Shown here in pieces: positions 2,911 to 23,791 of a stretch of 33,126 bases of DNA. The notes beneath the pieces were generated by a model. That model was not told the DNA's origin, did not search any database, and saw only the letters and a list, made by a program, of their open reading frames with translations. This DNA comes from Actinomycetota bacterium (GTDB lineage Bacteria; Actinomycetota; Acidimicrobiia; IMCC26256; VFJJ01): positions 1 to 33,126 of the forward strand of contig VFJJ01000160.1 of the NCBI GenBank assembly GCA_009886115.1, given 5' to 3'. The number at the start of each line of letters is the position of its first letter. The first letter of the stretch is position 1. Both the position numbers and the translations under genes were made by a program.

Positions 2911-4526
2911 GATGCGCTCTCCGGTGGACGGTCGAGGTTCGACGGGATGTGCACACGAGCAGCCAGCTCGCACGGCCGGCCCGCTGACTCCCCGGCCAGG
3001 CGTGACCGGACGACCTTGCCCGAGGGGGTTCGGGGGAGCGGCCCGTCCCAGACCACCAGCTGCTCGGGCAGCTTACGGGTGGCGATCCCACCGGCGCGCA
3101 GGTGCTCGACGACGTCGCCGAGCCGGATCGTCGCTCCAGCCTCCGGCTGCACGGCCACGGCGAGCCGCTCGCCGGTGTCGGGGTCTCCGACCCCGAACGC
3201 CGCGCACTCCACGATCCCCGGAAGACGGGCCAGCGCACCGTCGAGCTCGCTCAGCGAGATCTTGAGCCCGTTGCGGTTCACGACCTCCGCGATGCGCCCG
3301 ACCACGGTGAGCCGATCGTCGTGCACGTCGACGGCGTCACCGGTGCGGAACCAGTCGTCCTCGAATGCGGCGGCGTTGTCGGCGGGGTCGACGTAGCCGA
3401 GGAACAGGGCGGGCCCGCGCAGCAGGCCTTCCTGGGCGTGGTCCCGGGAGCCCACCCTCACCTCGGTCCCCGCCATGAAGGCGCCGTCGTCGCCCAGTCG
3501 GGTGGAGGGGTCGTCGCTCGGCAGGCTGCCGGTGGTGTTCGGCGCCTCCGACGATCCGTAGACGCGAGCGGCCACGATTCCGAACTCGCCGGTGGCCTGC
3601 TCGAGGAGCGGGCGGGCCAGCATGGCGCCACCCAGGGCGACGGTGCGAAGGGCGATACGGCGGTCGTCCCGCCCGGCCGCCGCTCGCAGCAGCCGCTCGA
3701 CGATCACGGGTGCGCCGCCGAGCACCTCGGCGCCGAGCTGGTTGATCCGTTCGAGCGACGCCTCGGCCTCGAAACGGTCTTCGAGCGCCAAGGTGGCGTG
3801 CTGGTCGGCGCACAGGTGCATCTGCATCACGCCGGCGATGCTGGTGAGCGGGCTCACGAGGAACACCACCGTCCCGGCTCGGGTGCCGGTGACATGCGCC
3901 ATGTTCCGGGCTCCGGCCGTGAGCGTGTTGAGCGAGTGCACGACCCCCTTGGGACGGCTGGTGGTGCCCGAGGTGAACAACACCACGGCCGGCCCGTCGC
4001 GTTCGGGCTCGCCAGCGGTGTCGCGACTGCCGTCGAGGACGGCTCCGTCGGCGGCTCCGGACAGATCGCCCAGGCGCTCCAACGGCCAGGGGTCGACCTC
4101 GAGACCGGCGAGCAGCCGCCCGATGTCGGAGGCGGGGGCCACCACGACCGGGGCGCCGCCGATCGTCTCCACGGCCAGCGCCACGTCGGCCGTCCCGACG
4201 CGCCGGTCGAGGACGATCGTCGTGGCGCCCGTGCGCAGGAGGGCGTGGTAGGCGACCACGCCGTCGACGGTGTTGCCGGTCACGAGCACCGCTGCGGTTC
4301 CGGGCCGCAGCCCGCCCGACCGGAGCACGGCTGCGGCGCGGGCGACGTCGCGGGCGAGCTCGGTGGCGGTGAGCGACCTCTCGTTGTCGATCACCGCGAG
4401 CATGTGGGGACGGCTCGACGCCGCCGCTTCGATCCCGTCGGTCAGGGTCCGGTCGTCCCAGAGCCGCTCGGCTCGGTAGCGGTCGGCCCGGTCGGTCGGA
4501 ACGGGCTTCGTCGGCGTGATCACCAT
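2907..4526 (-). CDS. AMP-binding acyl-CoA synthetase (cyclohexanecarboxylate-CoA ligase-like)
   Basis: VLFTSGTTSRPKGV, YGSSE, WFRTGD and PRTPSGKV adenylation motifs. Confidence 0.92.
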   Translation of the reverse strand: MVITPTKPVPTDRADRYRAERLWDDRTLTDGIEAAASSRPHMLAVIDNERSLTATELARDVARAAAVLRSGGLRPGTAAVLVTGNTVDGVVAYHALLRTGATTIVLDRRVGTADVALAVETIGGAPVVVAPASDIGRLLAGLEVDPWPLERLGDLSGAADGAVLDGSRDTAGEPERDGPAVVLFTSGTTSRPKGVVHSLNTLTAGARNMAHVTGTRAGTVVFLVSPLTSIAGVMQMHLCADQHATLALEDRFEAEASLERINQLGAEVLGGAPVIVERLLRAAAGRDDRRIALRTVALGGAMLARPLLEQATGEFGIVAARVYGSSEAPNTTGSLPSDDPSTRLGDDGAFMAGTEVRVGSRDHAQEGLLRGPALFLGYVDPADNAAAFEDDWFRTGDAVDVHDDRLTVVGRIAEVVNRNGLKISLSELDGALARLPGIVECAAFGVGDPDTGERLAVAVQPEAGATIRLGDVVEHLRAGGIATRKLPEQLVVWDGPLPRTPSGKVVRSRLAGESAGRPCELAARVHIPSNLDRPPESAS

Positions 4527-7035: not shown

Positions 7036-8454
7036 TCACACCTGCGAACGGGCGCCGGCGACCACGGCCTCACGAACGATGGGGAGGCGCACCCGAACCG
7101 TGGTCGACCCCGGGTGTGAGTCGAACTCGATCACGCCGTCGTGACGTTCGACGATCCGACGCGAGATGTCGAGCCCGAGACCGGTCCCCTTGCCGACGTC
7201 CTTGGTGGTGAAGAACGGCTCGAAGACCCGGTGCAGCACCGCCGGATCGATGCCCGGCCCGCTGTCGGTGAGCTCCACGACGATGTCGGCTCCCCGGCGG
7301 AGCGTTGCGATGCGCAACGTCCCGCGCCCCTCCATCGCATCGACGGCGTTGTCGATCAGGTTCGTCCAGACCTGATTGAGCTCGGCCGCGTACACCTCGA
7401 TCTCGGGGATCTCGGCGTCATAGGCACGAACCACCTCGATGTCTCGCAGCTTGACCGCCAGCATCGTGAGCGTGCTCTCGATGCCCCCGGTCACGTCGAT
7501 CCGATTGAGCGCTGCGCGATCCATCGCGGAGTACGTCTTGACGTCCTCGACGAGGTGCGAGATACGGGCGGTGGCCTCGGCGAGCTCGTCGAGGATCGAC
7601 ATCATCCCGACCGTGCTGGTGATCCAACGCACCGCCGGCGACAGCGCCTCGGAGCCGACGGCGGCTTCGAGCTCCTCCAGCCAGACACGGTCGACACCTG
7701 AGGCGGCGAGAACCGGGGCCAGCCGCCAAGCGATGCCGACGTCGTGGTCCTCGAGCCAGGAGCCGATGGCATCCTCGCGATCGGCGCGCTCGATGGCGCC
7801 GTCATCGGCGTCGGGACGTTGTCGGAGCTCGGCCCGGAAACGGTCGAGCTTCAAGAACTGATCGGCGGCGACCCCCTGTTCGGCGAGGGCGACGAGCGAG
7901 GACATCATGTACTCGCTGGCGTTTCGCAGCCCTTCGACAGCACGCATCGACGCCGCCGCGGGATTGTTGATCTCGTGGGCGAGACCGGCGGCGAGGGTTC
8001 CCAGGGCAACGAGCGACTCGCGCTCGCGGGCATGGGCGTCGATACTGCGAACCGTGTGGAAGACGCCGGTGATCATGTGCATCGCGAACGGCGACCACGA
8101 GCCGACCACCGAGGCGAGCTTGTCGGACGGCACGACCAGGCACCGACCCGGAGTCACGGCGCGCCCAGACGCCCGGTAGACCCCGTCGGCGCCGCCCCAC
8201 GCCGCGAGGCCGCCGGCCCATTGACCCGGTGTCGACATCGTGGCGACGACGTTGCTCCGATTGGCGACCCGACGCGACAACTCGATCTCACCCTCCAGCA
8301 AGATCCACAACTGATCTGCTTGGCGGCCCTCGGTGAACAATTCGTCATCGGGCGCAAAGCGGATCTCGTGCCCGGCATCGATCAGCTCGGCCCGCTGCCC
8401 GTCGTCGAGCTCTGCGGTGAGGAACGCGGCCCGCAGATCGTCGGCGAGGCTCAT
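7036..8454 (-). CDS. Cytoplasmic sensor histidine kinase with N-terminal cyclic-nucleotide-binding-like domain
   Basis: LFTEGRQADQLWILLEGEIEL (cNMP fold), H-box LAHEINNP, N-box QVWTNLIDNAVDA, DSGPG, FEPFFTTK, GKGTGLGL. Confidence 0.93.
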   Translation of the reverse strand: MSLADDLRAAFLTAELDDGQRAELIDAGHEIRFAPDDELFTEGRQADQLWILLEGEIELSRRVANRSNVVATMSTPGQWAGGLAAWGGADGVYRASGRAVTPGRCLVVPSDKLASVVGSWSPFAMHMITGVFHTVRSIDAHARERESLVALGTLAAGLAHEINNPAAASMRAVEGLRNASEYMMSSLVALAEQGVAADQFLKLDRFRAELRQRPDADDGAIERADREDAIGSWLEDHDVGIAWRLAPVLAASGVDRVWLEELEAAVGSEALSPAVRWITSTVGMMSILDELAEATARISHLVEDVKTYSAMDRAALNRIDVTGGIESTLTMLAVKLRDIEVVRAYDAEIPEIEVYAAELNQVWTNLIDNAVDAMEGRGTLRIATLRRGADIVVELTDSGPGIDPAVLHRVFEPFFTTKDVGKGTGLGLDISRRIVERHDGVIEFDSHPGSTTVRVRLPIVREAVVAGARSQV

Positions 8455-10115
8455 ACCGTCTCCAGGTAGAGGTGCACGTTGCTGATCGCGCTCGAGCCTT
8501 CACCGACCGCGGATGCCACTCGTTTCATCGAGGAGCGCCGCACATCGCCGGCCGCGAACACGCCGGGTGCACTCGTCTCCAGGAGGAACGGCGGCCGTCG
8601 CAGCGCCCAGCCGGGGCCGTCGACGCCGCCCAGCGCACCAACGTCGGGACCGGTCAAGATGAACCCGTGCTCATCTCTCGCGACGACGTGAGCGAGCCAG
8701 TCGGTGCGCGGTTTCGCCCCGATGAACGCATACAACCAGTTCGCCGACACGTCCTGCTGCGTCCCGGTGTCGCGCTCGACAAGGGTGAGCCATTCGAGGT
8801 GATCGGAGCCGCCACCCCGGACGATCTCGGTGCGTAGACGTACTTCGATCCTGTCGGAGGCGAGGATCCGATCAACGAGGTACCTCGACATCGAGGCCTC
8901 GAGCGACTCGCCGCGCACCAGCATCACCACGCGGCGTGCGTACTGAGCGAGGTGGAGCGCCGCTTGCCCGGCCGAGTTGGCAGCGCCGACGAGATACACG
9001 TCGTCGCCCTCGGTCGTGCGGGCATCACTCACCGAGGCGCCGTAGTACACGCCTCTCCCCGTGAAGTCGGCGAGCCCTTCAGCGGTCAGCAACTGGTACG
9101 ACACGCCGGTAGCGACGACGACGGCTCGCGACTCGATCTCGGAACCGTCGTCGAAGCTGAGCGCGAAGATCGAACCGCGCAACTCGAGCGACTGCACATT
9201 GCGGGCGAGCACCATCTCGGCTCCGAGCCGGCGCGCCTGTGTCGCCGCTCGATGGGACAGATCGGCGCCGCTGAGGCCGTTCGGGAAGCCGAGGTAGTTC
9301 TCGATCCTCGAGCTCTGGCCTGCCTGTCCCCCCGGCGCATCGCGTTCGATCACGATGGTCCGCAAGCCCTCCGAGGCCGCGTAGACCGCCGCAGCCAGAC
9401 CAGCAGGCCCGGCGCCCACGACCACGACGTCGTACAGCGCTGCTTCTGTGGTGGTGTGGAGTCCCAGCGCGCTCGCGAGCTCGAGCGTGCTCGCGCCGTG
9501 CAGCACCGTGCCGTCCGGCAGGAGCACCAGAGGAAGCCCGCCCTCCGAGGCGCCGAAGAGGCCGTGCAGCCGCTGGGCCTCGGCGTCGGTGTCGAGCTCG
9601 AGCCACTGGTAGTGGACATGGTTGCGGGCGAGGAAGATCCGCGTGTCGTAGCTCCGTTCCGACCACCGGTTCCCGACCACGCGAACGCCTTCGAATCGTT
9701 GGCTGTTGGCACGGTCCCAATCGTCCAACAGATCGTCGAGCACCGGGTACAGACGCTCTTCCGGCGGCGCCCACGGCTTCATCAGATAGTGGTCGAGGCC
9801 GATCTCGTTGATCGCGGTGATCGCCACCTCGGTGTCGGCGTATGCAGTGAGGAGGAGGAGCTTGGCGCCCGGCGCGATCGGTCGAGCCCGTTCGAGGAGC
9901 TCGATCCCGGTCATCTCCGGCATGCGATGATCCGACAGGATCAACGCAACCGGATGATCACGTCGACCGAGCTCCTCCAACGCCGCCAGTGCCTCTGCGC
10001 CCGACGTGGCCCGGATGATCCGGTACCGCTCGGCGTAGCGCGCCCGCAGGTCACGGGCCACCGCCTGCGAGACCGTCACGTCGTCGTCGACAGTCAGAAT
10101 CGCCGGTCTCGCCAC
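8451..10115 (-). CDS. Response-regulator receiver fused to thioredoxin-reductase-like FAD oxidoreductase
   Basis: REC domain ILTVDDD...LILSDHRMPEMTG...LLTAY...KPW, then GAGPAG, GGQAGQSSRIENYLGFP, GAANSAG, PGVFAAGDVR. Overlaps the kinase start (ATGA). Confidence 0.93.
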   Translation of the reverse strand: MARPAILTVDDDVTVSQAVARDLRARYAERYRIIRATSGAEALAALEELGRRDHPVALILSDHRMPEMTGIELLERARPIAPGAKLLLLTAYADTEVAITAINEIGLDHYLMKPWAPPEERLYPVLDDLLDDWDRANSQRFEGVRVVGNRWSERSYDTRIFLARNHVHYQWLELDTDAEAQRLHGLFGASEGGLPLVLLPDGTVLHGASTLELASALGLHTTTEAALYDVVVVGAGPAGLAAAVYAASEGLRTIVIERDAPGGQAGQSSRIENYLGFPNGLSGADLSHRAATQARRLGAEMVLARNVQSLELRGSIFALSFDDGSEIESRAVVVATGVSYQLLTAEGLADFTGRGVYYGASVSDARTTEGDDVYLVGAANSAGQAALHLAQYARRVVMLVRGESLEASMSRYLVDRILASDRIEVRLRTEIVRGGGSDHLEWLTLVERDTGTQQDVSANWLYAFIGAKPRTDWLAHVVARDEHGFILTGPDVGALGGVDGPGWALRRPPFLLETSAPGVFAAGDVRRSSMKRVASAVGEGSSAISNVHLYLETV

Positions 10116-10395: not shown

Positions 10396-11637
10396 ATGGC
10401 CATGATCGAACCGATCGAGGATCTCTCCGACCCCACCTGGGATCCGCATCTCGGCGACGAGTTGTTCTTCGGGACGCTCAGCGATCCGTACCCGATCCTC
10501 GCCCGGCTCCGGGAGAGCGCCGGAGTGGTGCCTGGTGATTTCCGCGACGCCATGGGATTGCCGCCGAGCCCCCCGCAGGCGTACGCCCCGCACTACATGG
10601 TGCTGTCGTTCGCGGCCATCGACCATGTGCTGAGCCATCCCGAGGTGTTCTCGAACAAGGCGTTCGATTCCACGCTCGGGGCCGCGTTCGGCCACACGCT
10701 CAGCGTCATGGACCAGCCCGAGCACACGGGCTACCGCAAGACCCTCCAGCGGGTGTTCCGGCCCAACATCGTCCAGGAGTGGGGTACGGGGATCGTCGAC
10801 CCGGTGATCGACGAGCTCGTCGGTGCTTTCCGCGAGAACGGCAGGGCCGAGCTCGTCGAGCAGTTCTGCCGTCCATACCCGTTCACGGTCATCTACCGGA
10901 TGATCGGCCTCCCGGCTCGCGACATCGCCACCTTCTACCGGTTGACAGTCACCCAGATCCTCTCGCCCGTGCGGATGGACATGGCGCTCGAGGCCTCGGC
11001 CAAGCTCGGCCGGTACTTCACGGCGATGCTCGCCGAGCGGCGCAGGAACCCCGGCACCGACCTCGTGAGCGTCCTCGCCACCGCCGAGACCGACGGTGAA
11101 CGGCTGCCCGACGATGTGGTCATCTCGTTCCTGCGTCAGCTCATCAACGCCGGCGGCGACACGACCTTCCGGACGACGACCATCCTCCTCACCGGCCTGT
11201 TGACCAACCCCGATCAGCTGGAGGCGGTCCGCGCCGACCGCTCGCTCATCGGTCCGGCCATCGAGGAGGCCCTGCGATGGGACGGCCCCGTCGTCGCCAG
11301 CATGCGCGAGACGATCGAGGACACCGTCGTCGAAGGCGTGCCCATCCCCTCGGGGACCTTCATCGACCTCCTCTACGGCGCCGCCAACCACGACCCGGCC
11401 ATGTACGAGCACCCCGAGCGCTTCGACATCTTCCGCGCGAGGCGCCGCCACTTCGGCTTCTCCAGCGGCATCCACAACTGCATCGGCCAGCAGCTCGCCC
11501 GTCTCGAGATGACCCGGGCCGTCAACGCCATCCTCGACCGTCTCCCCAACGTGAGGCTCGACCCCGAAGCCCCGGCCCCCCAACCCCGGGGAGCCATGAT
11601 GCGCACGCCCCCGGCGATCAACGTCGTGTTCGACTGA
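10396..11637 (+). CDS. Cytochrome P450
   Basis: I-helix NAGGDTT, K-helix EEALR, heme motif HFGFSSGIHNCIG. GAAGGA RBS before ATG 10396. Confidence 0.95.
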   Translation: MAMIEPIEDLSDPTWDPHLGDELFFGTLSDPYPILARLRESAGVVPGDFRDAMGLPPSPPQAYAPHYMVLSFAAIDHVLSHPEVFSNKAFDSTLGAAFGHTLSVMDQPEHTGYRKTLQRVFRPNIVQEWGTGIVDPVIDELVGAFRENGRAELVEQFCRPYPFTVIYRMIGLPARDIATFYRLTVTQILSPVRMDMALEASAKLGRYFTAMLAERRRNPGTDLVSVLATAETDGERLPDDVVISFLRQLINAGGDTTFRTTTILLTGLLTNPDQLEAVRADRSLIGPAIEEALRWDGPVVASMRETIEDTVVEGVPIPSGTFIDLLYGAANHDPAMYEHPERFDIFRARRRHFGFSSGIHNCIGQQLARLEMTRAVNAILDRLPNVRLDPEAPAPQPRGAMMRTPPAINVVFD

Positions 11638-11682
11638 GTGACTGAGTGACTGAGTGACTGAGTGACTGAGTGACTGAGTGAC
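11632..11682. repeat. Perfect octamer tandem repeat (GACTGAGT)x6 plus a partial unit
   Basis: Read directly. The first unit contains the P450 last codon and TGA stop. Confidence 0.95.
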
Positions 11683-11720
11683 GGCCCGCCGAGCATGGGC
11701 GACGTCGAATCCGTCACACC

Positions 11721-11726
11721 TACACT
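11721..11726 (+). promoter_or_regulatory. Putative -10 element (TACACT) for a leaderless transcript of the merB-like gene
   Basis: TANNNT hexamer ending 8 nt before ATG 11735, with no clear Shine-Dalgarno sequence. Confidence 0.45.
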
Positions 11727-11734
11727 CGAGCGGC

Positions 11735-12394
11735 ATGGAAGCTGCCGATCTTCAGGTGCGGAACACGACGTATCACGGCTTCGTGGAGCTGGGCCGGGCC
11801 CCTGTCGTGGGCGAGATCGCCGGGCGCCTCCAGATGAGCGTCGCCGAGGTGGGGGCGAGTTGGCAACGACTCCACGGTCTCCATGCACTCGTCCTCGACG
11901 GTGACGGCTCCAGCCTTCGGATGGCCAACCCGTTCTCTGCCGTGCCGACCCGTCACCGAGTTCGCGCCGATGGACGATGGTGGTTCGCCAACTGCGCGTG
12001 GGATGCTTTCGGAATCTGCGCGGCGTTGCACGTCGACGGGCACATCTCGTCGGTCTGCCCGGACTGCAGCGAACCGATCGAGATCGACCTTGTCGCCGAG
12101 CAGCCCAGCGATACCTCGCTGCTGTTCCACAGCATCGTCCCCGCCGCACGGTGGTGGGATGACATCGTGTTCACGTGAGGCTCGATGAACCTCTTCCGGT
12201 CGGAGGAGCACATCGCCCACTGGCTCGACGGCCGTAGTCCTGGCATGACCACCACGGTCGTCACACTCAGCGAGCTCGCGCACGCCTGGTGGGGCAACCG
12301 CCTCGACCCCGCGTGGCAGCCCAGGTCGAAAGCGGCCAACCGCGCGATCCTCGACTCCCTCGGCCTCACCGGGCCGCTCTGGTCGCTCGACTGA
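11735..12394 (+). CDS. MerB (alkylmercury/organomercurial lyase)-like protein, probable selenoprotein (UGA148 = Sec), 219 aa
   Basis: N-terminal helical/HTH-like region, PFSAVPTRHRV, FANCAWDAFG (Cys87/Asp90), CPDC, WWDDIVFT-TGA-GSMNLFRSEEHI. ORFs 11678..12178 and 12185..12394 are in the same frame and separated by one TGA (12176-12178). Confidence 0.8.
12179..12215 (+). promoter_or_regulatory. Putative bacterial SECIS element
   Basis: Upper stem CUCUUCC (12191-12197) / GGAGGAG (12202-12208) with GGUC loop starting 19 nt after the UGA. Lower stem CGAUG (12183-12187) / CAUCG (12211-12215). Confidence 0.7.
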
Positions 12395-21936: not shown

Positions 21937-22524
21937 TCAGCGAGCGGTGTATCCACCATCGACCGGCAAGAGCACGCCGGTGATGTTGATCGAGTCGTTG
22001 CACGCGAGGAAGAGCGCGGCTGCTGCGCAGTCCTCGGCGGTGACGATACGGCCGTTGGGTTGGAGCGAAGCGGCGAACTCCACGTACTCGTCGGAGGGCG
22101 CCTCGAAAGGCTTGTCCGGGTTGGCCATGATGAACTGCTTCACGGCGTGCTTGCAGCCGAGAAACACTCCCTTGAAGTTGATGTCGGTGAGCCGTTGCCA
22201 ATCGTCGACGGTGTGGTCCTCGAACATCTGCCCCGGCTTCATCCCGGTTATGCCCGCGTTGTTGAACATCACATCGAGGCGACCGAACTGCGTGACGGCG
22301 GTCGAGACCGCGGCCTCGACATCGGCCTCCGACCTCACGTCGCAGTGGACTCCGAAAGCGATGCCGCCGGCCGCGGTGACGAGACGGACGGTCTCGGCCG
22401 CCCACTCGTCGTGCACATCAGCCACGACGACCTTCGCACCCTGCGCGCAGAACAGCAACGTCGACGCGCGCCCAACGCCTGAGCCGGCGCCGGTGATCAC
22501 GACCGATGTGTCAGCGAGCTTCAT
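21937..22524 (-). pseudogene. SDR oxidoreductase with an in-frame internal deletion removing the catalytic Ser/YxxxK region
   Basis: TGAGSGVG, FNNAG and GVFLGCKHAVKQF are joined directly to the C-terminal segment (...AEDCAAAALFLA...ITGVLLPVDGGY). Only 195 aa, with no YxxxK or IRVN..PG. Confidence 0.75.
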
Positions 22525-22567
22525 GGATCGGACTCCTCGGCGAAAGACGGTGATGGGGCGTTGCAGT

Positions 22568-23791
22568 TCACAGCACCACCCCCTTCATCTTGAGGGCGAC
22601 AACGTCATCCCAGCTGTAGCCGAGGGATTGCAGCACGTCGTCGGTGTTCTCGCCCAGGTCCGGACTGGCGTGCAGCGCGGCCGGCTGCTCATCGAACTGC
22701 ACGGCACCCGCCGGGAGGGGGAACGTGGACCCGTCGGCTCGCGTGGCGGTGCCGATGTATCCGTTGGCGATGACGGCGGGATCGTTCATGAGCTCGTCGA
22801 TGCGCTGGTACGGACCCCACGGAACCCGGGCCGCGTTCAACGGTTCGCGCCAGTGCGCGAGCGGTCGCGACGCGAATGCCGCCTCGAGCTCGGTGACCAG
22901 GGCCGCGCTGTTCAGCCCACGGTCGTGCATCGAATCGAACCGCTCGTCGGAGAGCAGGTCGGCCCGGTCGAGCAACGTGCACAGGTCGGCCCAGTACCTG
23001 TCGGGCTGCAGGCAGCAGATCATGAGCCATCGTCCATCGGCGCACTTGTAGTTCGCGGCGAGCGGGTTGGGCAACGACGTGCGCGGCCGGCCCAGCGGTG
23101 GGCTCTGACGGTACGCGCCCTGCATCTGTGACAGCACGTCGGAACCGATCATCCACAGTGCCGTGCCGAGCAACGACACGTCGACCACCGAGCCCTCACC
23201 GGTGCGCTCCCGGCGGAACAGTGCGCCAGCGATGCCGAACGCGAGTTGCGTGCCGGCATAGCGGTCGCCGAGGGCGCCTCGCTGCGGGATCGGCTCGACC
23301 AACCCCTCCGGGGCGATCGTCTCCTCGATGGCGCCACGCGCCCAGAACGATGTGGAGTCGTACGCCGGCGTGTCGGCATCGTCGCCACGTACGCCGTAAC
23401 CGTGGCCCCGCGCGTAGATGAGCCGCGGGTTCACGGCCCGCAGCGCGTCGACGCCGAGACCGAGCCGATCGAGCACCGATGGCAGGAAGTTCGTGAGGAA
23501 CACGTCGGCCTGCTCGATGAGCTGCAACAGGATCGTCCGGCCCTCCTCGGCCTTGAGGTCGATGGCGACGCTCGACTTGTTCCGATTGGCCATCTCCATG
23601 GCGTAGTTCACCGACGACGTGCCTGCACCAGGCAGCGCGAGCCCGCGATAGCCGTCGCCGCCGTGTGGGTGCTCGACCTTGATGACCTCCGCACCCCAGT
23701 CGGCCATGAGCGCGCCGGCCACGGGGACGAACACCCACTGCGCGAGCTCGACGACGCGCACGCCACCGAACACGTTCACGGACGGTGCCAT
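22568..23791 (-). CDS. CoA transferase family III (CaiB/BaiF)
   Basis: GVRVVELAQW, GAEVIKVEHP..GD, NRNKSSVAIDLK, NPRLIYA, PDLGENT. Confidence 0.93.
   Translation of the reverse strand: MAPSVNVFGGVRVVELAQWVFVPVAGALMADWGAEVIKVEHPHGGDGYRGLALPGAGTSSVNYAMEMANRNKSSVAIDLKAEEGRTILLQLIEQADVFLTNFLPSVLDRLGLGVDALRAVNPRLIYARGHGYGVRGDDADTPAYDSTSFWARGAIEETIAPEGLVEPIPQRGALGDRYAGTQLAFGIAGALFRRERTGEGSVVDVSLLGTALWMIGSDVLSQMQGAYRQSPPLGRPRTSLPNPLAANYKCADGRWLMICCLQPDRYWADLCTLLDRADLLSDERFDSMHDRGLNSAALVTELEAAFASRPLAHWREPLNAARVPWGPYQRIDELMNDPAVIANGYIGTATRADGSTFPLPAGAVQFDEQPAALHASPDLGENTDDVLQSLGYSWDDVVALKMKGVVL

Follow-up and report, generated by a model that had tools for sequence, protein, structure and literature searches.

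A MerB-like protein family of Actinomycetota and Chloroflexota with an in-frame UGA that is probably decoded as selenocysteine

Background

The closest described counterpart of the gene studied here is SaoL (NCBIfam NF040728), a MerB-like selenoprotein of the SAO locus found in Clostridioides difficile and other anaerobes, according to the accessible part of its description (Haft & Gwadz, bioRxiv 10.1101/2022.07.06.499078). Reviews of prokaryotic selenoproteins from 2022 and 2026 list no MerB entry other than SaoL, and a literature search on MerB, organomercurial lyase or alkylmercury lyase in combination with selenocysteine (Sec), with most subscription journals outside its reach, returned nothing beyond it. 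A further precedent concerns the Sec codon itself: in Geodermatophilaceae, including Blastococcus, tRNA-Sec carries the anticodon CUA and selenoprotein genes have TAG as the Sec codon, as stated in the available portions of two papers (PMC5330540; PMC5133445), the first of which names FDH, UGSC proteins and AhpC of Blastococcus saxobsidens as UAG-encoded selenoproteins.

Here we describe a MerB-like gene interrupted by an in-frame TGA at the position of the second catalytic Cys of MerB. It lies in a window of 33,126 bases (the whole stretch of DNA that was analyzed, which is an entire contig) and represents a subfamily that has apparently not been reported as a selenoprotein before.

Results

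The gene occupies a 219-codon frame on the + strand (11735-12394) interrupted solely by a TGA (12176-12178); GGC TCG separates this codon from an ATG at 12185, and the open reading frames 11678..12178 and 12185..12394 share this frame (Table 1). Homologues begin with MDxxDL, in agreement with ATG 11735 and not with GTG 11678. When TGA is read as U from ATG 11735, CAWD forms residues 87-90 and U148 stands within DIVFT-U-GSMNLF. The initial annotation had joined the two open reading frames into one protein of 219 aa, and all of its coordinates (the TGA, the two same-frame pieces, the length, CAWD 87-90 and the context of U148) proved correct. Against Pfam MerB (PF03243, gathering cut-off 27 bits), the read-through protein scored 91.2 bits (E=6.5e-26, profile positions 1-124 of 126), the N-terminal piece alone 60.2 bits, thus also passing the cut-off, and the C-terminal piece alone 14 bits. 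The match is thus no product of chance, and as the read-through outscored either piece, both pieces belong to one domain. Upstream of the gene, a perfect 8-bp tandem repeat (GACTGAGT, 6.4 copies, 11632-11682) fills the spacer that separates the P450 stop codon (11635-11637) from the start of the MerB-like gene, and gives TGA in all frames.

Table 1. Positions of the MerB-like gene and its proposed elements in the window
Feature	Position	Strand	Details
Complete CDS of the putative MerB-like selenoprotein	11735..12394	+	219 residues plus terminal TGA (12392-12394)
N-terminal helical domain, residues 1-62	11735..11920	+	Three predicted helices (H3-19, H25-32, H36-48 in the model), winged-helix-like
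MerB catalytic domain (PF03243), residues 67-185	11933..12289	+	Pfam match running across the TGA
C-A-W-D motif	11993..12004	+	Cys87 (TGC 11993-11995) and Asp90 (GAT 12002-12004), aligned with MerB Cys96/Asp99
In-frame TGA, codon 148, proposed selenocysteine	12176..12178	+	Aligned with MerB Cys159
C-terminal 71 residues, made only on TGA read-through	12179..12391	+	Protein-level conservation, with free synonymous variation outside the hairpin
SECIS-like hairpin	12183..12215	+	Lower stem 12183-12187/12211-12215; upper stem 12191-12197/12202-12208; GGUC apical loop 12198-12201

The AlphaFold2 model of the read-through protein (pLDDT 96.4, pTM 0.92) has a helix at 144-149 that passes through residue 148. 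In a Foldseek comparison with the PDB, all 11 matches at E<=0.001 were MerB or MerB2 (TM-score 0.47-0.71), and the family profile matched MerB2 (5c17) at E=3.5e-14 as well as MerB. In the alignment made with this profile, C87, D90 and U148 lie opposite C96, D99 and C159 of MerB: none of the 75 aligned sequences departs from C87 or D90, while the third catalytic position (Cys159) is taken in the window gene by the TGA codon, proposed here as Sec, and not by Cys. Together, model and alignment show a predicted MerB fold with U148 placed at the MerB Cys159 position, bearing out the parallel that the initial annotation had drawn between the TGA and the second catalytic Cys. The N-terminal helical domain gave a weak match to Sigma70_r3 (E=0.0097), and the MerB2 alignment starts at residue 17. 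Furthermore, Cys95, Cys108 (invariant), Cys111, His132 and Cys133 (about 12017-12133) are invariant or nearly so in the family and could together hold a structural metal. The window protein has Ser at 133, and it retains all 38 family-invariant residues.

The interruption recurs throughout the family. A protein search returned 6002 relatives; among the 120 matches listed, 98 are exactly 147 aa long, ending where the window TGA lies, three span the whole query, and the two entries named by NCBI are both called 'organomercurial lyase'. At least 587 relatives were found when a single genome per species was scanned, and 80 loci were retained for analysis. Every one of the 80 has a stop exactly 61 codons past the catalytic Cys, the same Cys87-to-TGA spacing that the initial annotation had counted in the window. 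This stop is followed by a conserved in-frame C-terminal region of ~70-86 residues (interrupted by the contig end in two of the 80). Downstream of the TGA the invariant R, G, L and P codons vary synonymously, and the frame past the TGA is therefore translated.

Counterparts with Cys at the interrupted position were also found. Column 148 is Cys in four close homologues of full-length type (the three matches spanning the whole query and one N-terminally truncated fragment), in the context VYT-C-TTMNLFR. Of the best 150 representatives (50% identity), 77 stop after residue 147 and 29 others do not cover column 148; Cys is present in 36 of the 44 that cover it, while the remaining eight comprise two Trp, one Ala, one Tyr and four in apparently misaligned or frameshifted stretches. 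Cys in homologues at this column and a stop conserved in independent genomes are the two patterns that the initial annotation had named as support for Sec, and both are now seen. The two sequences with Trp at the Sec/Cys column (P0129 and P0139), both full-length relatives, arose either from mutation to TGG or from a gene caller's use of a different code for TGA. When longer proteins were sought with the 71-aa C-terminal piece, two matches came up. A tblastn search of plasmids for Cys-type DNA gave, among the matches listed, identities of at most 31%, with all 141 records below 60%, and these were left out of the analysis.

The identity of the internal stop is far more constrained than that of the terminal one. 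In the window and the 80 loci, the internal stop is TGA in 78, TAG in three and TAA in none (77 TGA and three TAG when the window is set aside), while the terminal stops of the TGA-type genes are TGA in 37, TAG in 35 and TAA in four, with two genes running off the contig (Fisher p=1.3e-15). With the internal stop fixed while the terminal stop varies, the former is unlike a stop that merely terminates. The three TAG-type genes are those of Blastococcus jejuensis, B. capsensis and one metagenome-assembled genome, which shares a 9.6 kb blastn alignment with the B. jejuensis locus; the terminal stop is TGA in all three, and the internal TAG of the Blastococcus genes is followed by the same hairpin as the internal TGA elsewhere. 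UAG-encoded selenoproteins in Geodermatophilaceae were reportedly first described by Mukai et al. in 2016. Confinement of TAG to Blastococcus-type genomes, a lineage reported to read UAG as Sec, supports the decoding of the internal stop as Sec. FastTree analysis separates the B. capsensis copy (L048) from the other TAG-type genes (L027 and L032), which could reflect either two independent TGA-to-TAG changes or poor resolution of the tree.

Bacterial SECIS (bSECIS) elements are described as having an apical loop of 3-9 nt with G in its first two positions, an upper stem of 4-16 bp and a distance of 16-37 nt from the UGA (PMC13188914). Numbering from the U of UGA, the hairpin CUCUUCC-GGUC-GGAAGAG spans nucleotides 16-33 and continues below into a lower stem between 8-12 and 36-40; it can form in all sequences, and the window copy lies within these constraints (4-nt loop with G first, 7-bp stem and 19-nt spacing). 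The GGUC loop falls at positions 23-26, compared with 22-25 in fdhF of E. coli (K-12 genome), an offset of 1 nt. Across 79 distinct sequences the codons of the stem-loop are nearly frozen (CTC in 78/79, TTC in 78/79, CGG in 79/79 and TCG in 78/78), whereas the other invariant Leu, Arg and Ser positions of the gene use three to five codons each, with a synonymous entropy of 1.1-2.2 bits, the exception being a Leu just 3' of the hairpin (mostly CTC, 0.52 bits). This frozen codon choice is the strongest evidence for a putative SECIS element. The Glu codon that faces U19 is GAA in 44 sequences and GAG in 34, either of which pairs with U. Moreover, pairing in the upper helix holds for 97.8% of cells, versus 38-56% of all cells when its 3' partners are slid by 1-3 columns. 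No compensatory changes were found (one cell changed on both sides, and shuffle controls were not exceeded), because the hairpin is too conserved to covary; its support is therefore synonymous-site conservation and not covariation. Folded alone, the window hairpin is not unusually stable (z=-1.31), Rfam gave no family match in the window or in an E-value scan of 12100-12300, and the protein-level conservation of LFRSEE extends to the closest Cys forms.

Genes for Sec insertion were searched for around the MerB-like genes. Using E. coli SelA, SelB and SelD as tblastn queries, no match was found in 1,183,489 bases (the window and the 80 loci), and the MerB-like gene is therefore not linked to sel genes. 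No tRNA-Sec was detected in the window or in the 60 of the 80 loci scanned, these searches covering the contig and the flanks of the loci. At 3367-3460 (- strand) of one locus (L069), ARAGORN called a 94-nt 'tRNA-Ala (tgc)' where Rfam gave no tRNA at E<=0.01; this is probably a false call. The Sec trait occurs in aerobic bacteria and in Actinobacteria, according to the available part of a survey (PMC5029168), and the host type is therefore no argument against Sec.

The neighbourhood favours no particular substrate. In the window, the neighbours of the MerB-like gene encode a P450, a luciferase-like monooxygenase, an SDR and acyl-CoA dehydrogenases. No neighbour is conserved across the family, the commonest one (a generic ABC ATPase) being present in 11 of 80 sources. 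With queries taken from one Methylobacterium mer locus, tblastn gave no match to MerT, MerP-like protein, MerF or the adjacent HTH regulator within 10 kb in the window and the 80 loci; one of the 81 sequences contains a MerA homologue, at 32% identity.

The contig (1-33126, 68% G+C) is otherwise a catabolic cluster, with two P450s, three flavin monooxygenases (Baeyer-Villiger-type), acyl-CoA dehydrogenases, a family III CoA-transferase, SnoaL-like proteins, amidohydrolases, a thiolase-like protein and a TetR regulator. A gene at 8451-10115 (- strand) encodes a response-regulator receiver domain fused to a thioredoxin-reductase-like flavoprotein, and the adjoining gene (7039-8499, - strand) a cyclic-nucleotide-binding domain with a histidine-kinase-type ATPase. 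A 215-residue frame at 21940-22584 (- strand) has as its best short-chain dehydrogenase match positions 1-120 of a 236-position profile, with a second stretch that also matches, and the gene may be truncated or frameshifted.

Discussion

We consider it very likely that the window encodes a 219-residue protein of the MerB fold in which UGA148 specifies Sec. The initial annotation had proposed this reading, and it is strongly supported at the level of sequence: i) homologues have Cys at the same column; ii) an in-frame stop is present in 80 of 80 loci; iii) a SECIS-type hairpin with frozen codons follows; iv) the stop switches to TAG in Blastococcus; v) the codon aligns with Cys159 of MerB. From these we infer selenium insertion itself. 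SelB and tRNA-Sec would decode UGA148, directed by the bacterial SECIS hairpin within the 40 nt of coding sequence that follow, and the resulting Cys87/Asp90/Sec148 active site would stand in for Cys96/Asp99/Cys159 of MerB. By analogy with MerB, the thiolate and the selenolate would bind the metal of an organometal or organometalloid substrate, and Asp90 would protonate the leaving carbon.

The invariance of the ATG three codons past the stop (79 of 79 distinct sequences) would also fit a split gene, which ends at TGA148 and restarts at ATG 12185 to yield a 69-residue peptide, the two pieces together forming a MerB-like protein without the second catalytic Cys. Gene callers do predict proteins of 147 aa, and a hairpin near the restart site could in principle serve translational coupling. 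Such an arrangement is nevertheless quite improbable: a genuine stop would be expected to show the variation seen at the terminal position, but the internal one is TGA in all 78 genes outside the Blastococcus type, and the appearance of TAG solely in the UAG-Sec lineage would be left unexplained. Moreover, stop and ATG are always separated by two in-frame codons, which are never a stop and nearly all encode G, S, A or T, and these small residues before Met resemble the Cys forms (C-T-T-M), in which Met151 is kept where no restart is needed. The consensus TGAAGCACGATG has no good Shine-Dalgarno motif, and the break would fall inside a helix with loss of the catalytic residue.

Insertion of a standard amino acid (Trp, Cys or Gly) at UGA148, through near-cognate suppression or a non-standard code, has very little probability in our view. 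Trp read-through is unlikely because TGA is also the true terminator in 40 of 79 of these genes, and the column holds Cys rather than Trp in 36 of the 44 covering representatives. The two of these 44 with Trp (P0129 and P0139) would suit such decoding, but they may equally be TGG mutants or code-4 gene calls, and neither the hairpin nor the TAG switch in Blastococcus would then have a role. As for a nonsense pseudogene or an assembly error peculiar to this contig, the window copy does sit on the longest branch of the gene tree and does carry Ser at the nearly invariant Cys133. Such a defect is practically excluded: all 80 loci, drawn from different species-level genomes, have the stop, and the sequence after it is under purifying selection. 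The hairpin and all 38 invariant residues are intact in the window.

By homology, the leading guess for the substrate is organomercury. Selenium ligands have been reported to promote Hg-C protonolysis in model compounds, but a selenolate may give up Hg(II) only with difficulty, and with no MerA nearby this is a problem for an organomercury substrate. We put forward only tentatively, as a possibility with the odds against it, that the genes represent a large, unrecognised family of Sec-dependent carbon-metal lyases, present in abundant and mostly uncultured soil Actinomycetota and Chloroflexota, which would break down organometals or organometalloids outside any mer operon and whose Sec codon would track the tRNA-Sec anticodon. 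If so, soils would harbour a hidden selenium-dependent route for the breakdown of methylmercury (or of other organometals or organometalloids), and selenolate-bearing MerB homologues outside mer operons could alter estimates of soil demethylation potential. The Sec codon (TGA mostly, TAG in Blastococcus) would in that case be a natural marker of Sec-codon reassignment. For Sec decoding as such, the TGA-to-TAG switch in Blastococcus may serve as an internal control, and the genus offers cultured strains for testing. With UGA read as Sec, the same hidden selenoprotein sits truncated in the databases for many soil bacteria, and a second lineage of MerB-like selenoproteins, in bacteria labelled as soil Actinomycetota, would extend Sec-assisted organometallic chemistry beyond anaerobes.

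The family is a large one in Actinomycetota and some Chloroflexota, encoded by a stand-alone gene and distinct from both SaoL and canonical MerB; NCBIfam release 20 has no model for it. The initial annotation had rightly cited SaoL as a precedent. In the accessible part of its description, SaoL shares with the window family the MerB fold (PF03243), Sec at the MerB Cys159 position (proposed in our case), Cys and Asp at the Cys96 and Asp99 positions, database entries routinely truncated at the UGA, and the existence of Cys-containing relatives. Identity with SaoL was rejected on three grounds: i) the window protein scores 50.8 bits against a cut-off of 140 bits, with the alignment limited to residues 28-121; ii) SaoL has a C-U motif while the window family has T-U-[G/S/A/T], the stop being preceded by Thr in 79 of the 81 sequences and by Ala in two; iii) the nine-gene SAO neighbourhood, as described there, is absent around the window-family genes. 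In addition, the SAO taxa given there are exclusively anaerobic, whereas the hosts of the window family are labelled Actinomycetota, Chloroflexota and similar.

With MerB (PDB 3f0p and related) and Bacillus MerB2 (5c17), the closest solved relative by the profile match, the window protein shares the predicted fold (TM-score 0.57-0.71 to the crystal structures) and, in the alignment, the three active-site positions. It differs from them in the proposed Sec in place of the second Cys, in an identity of 17-24% to the solved structures, and in the additional, nearly invariant Cys95, Cys108, Cys111, His132 and Cys133 of its family. Identity as canonical MerB was rejected on the NCBIfam scores (30.5 bits for NF033555, cut-off 200; 34.5 bits for NF009710, cut-off 193) and on the location of the gene outside any mer operon. 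Finally, no MerB-like protein is among the UAG-Sec proteins named in the available portion of PMC5330540, and the Blastococcus copies of the window family resemble those UAG-encoded selenoproteins of Geodermatophilaceae in carrying TAG at the proposed Sec position.
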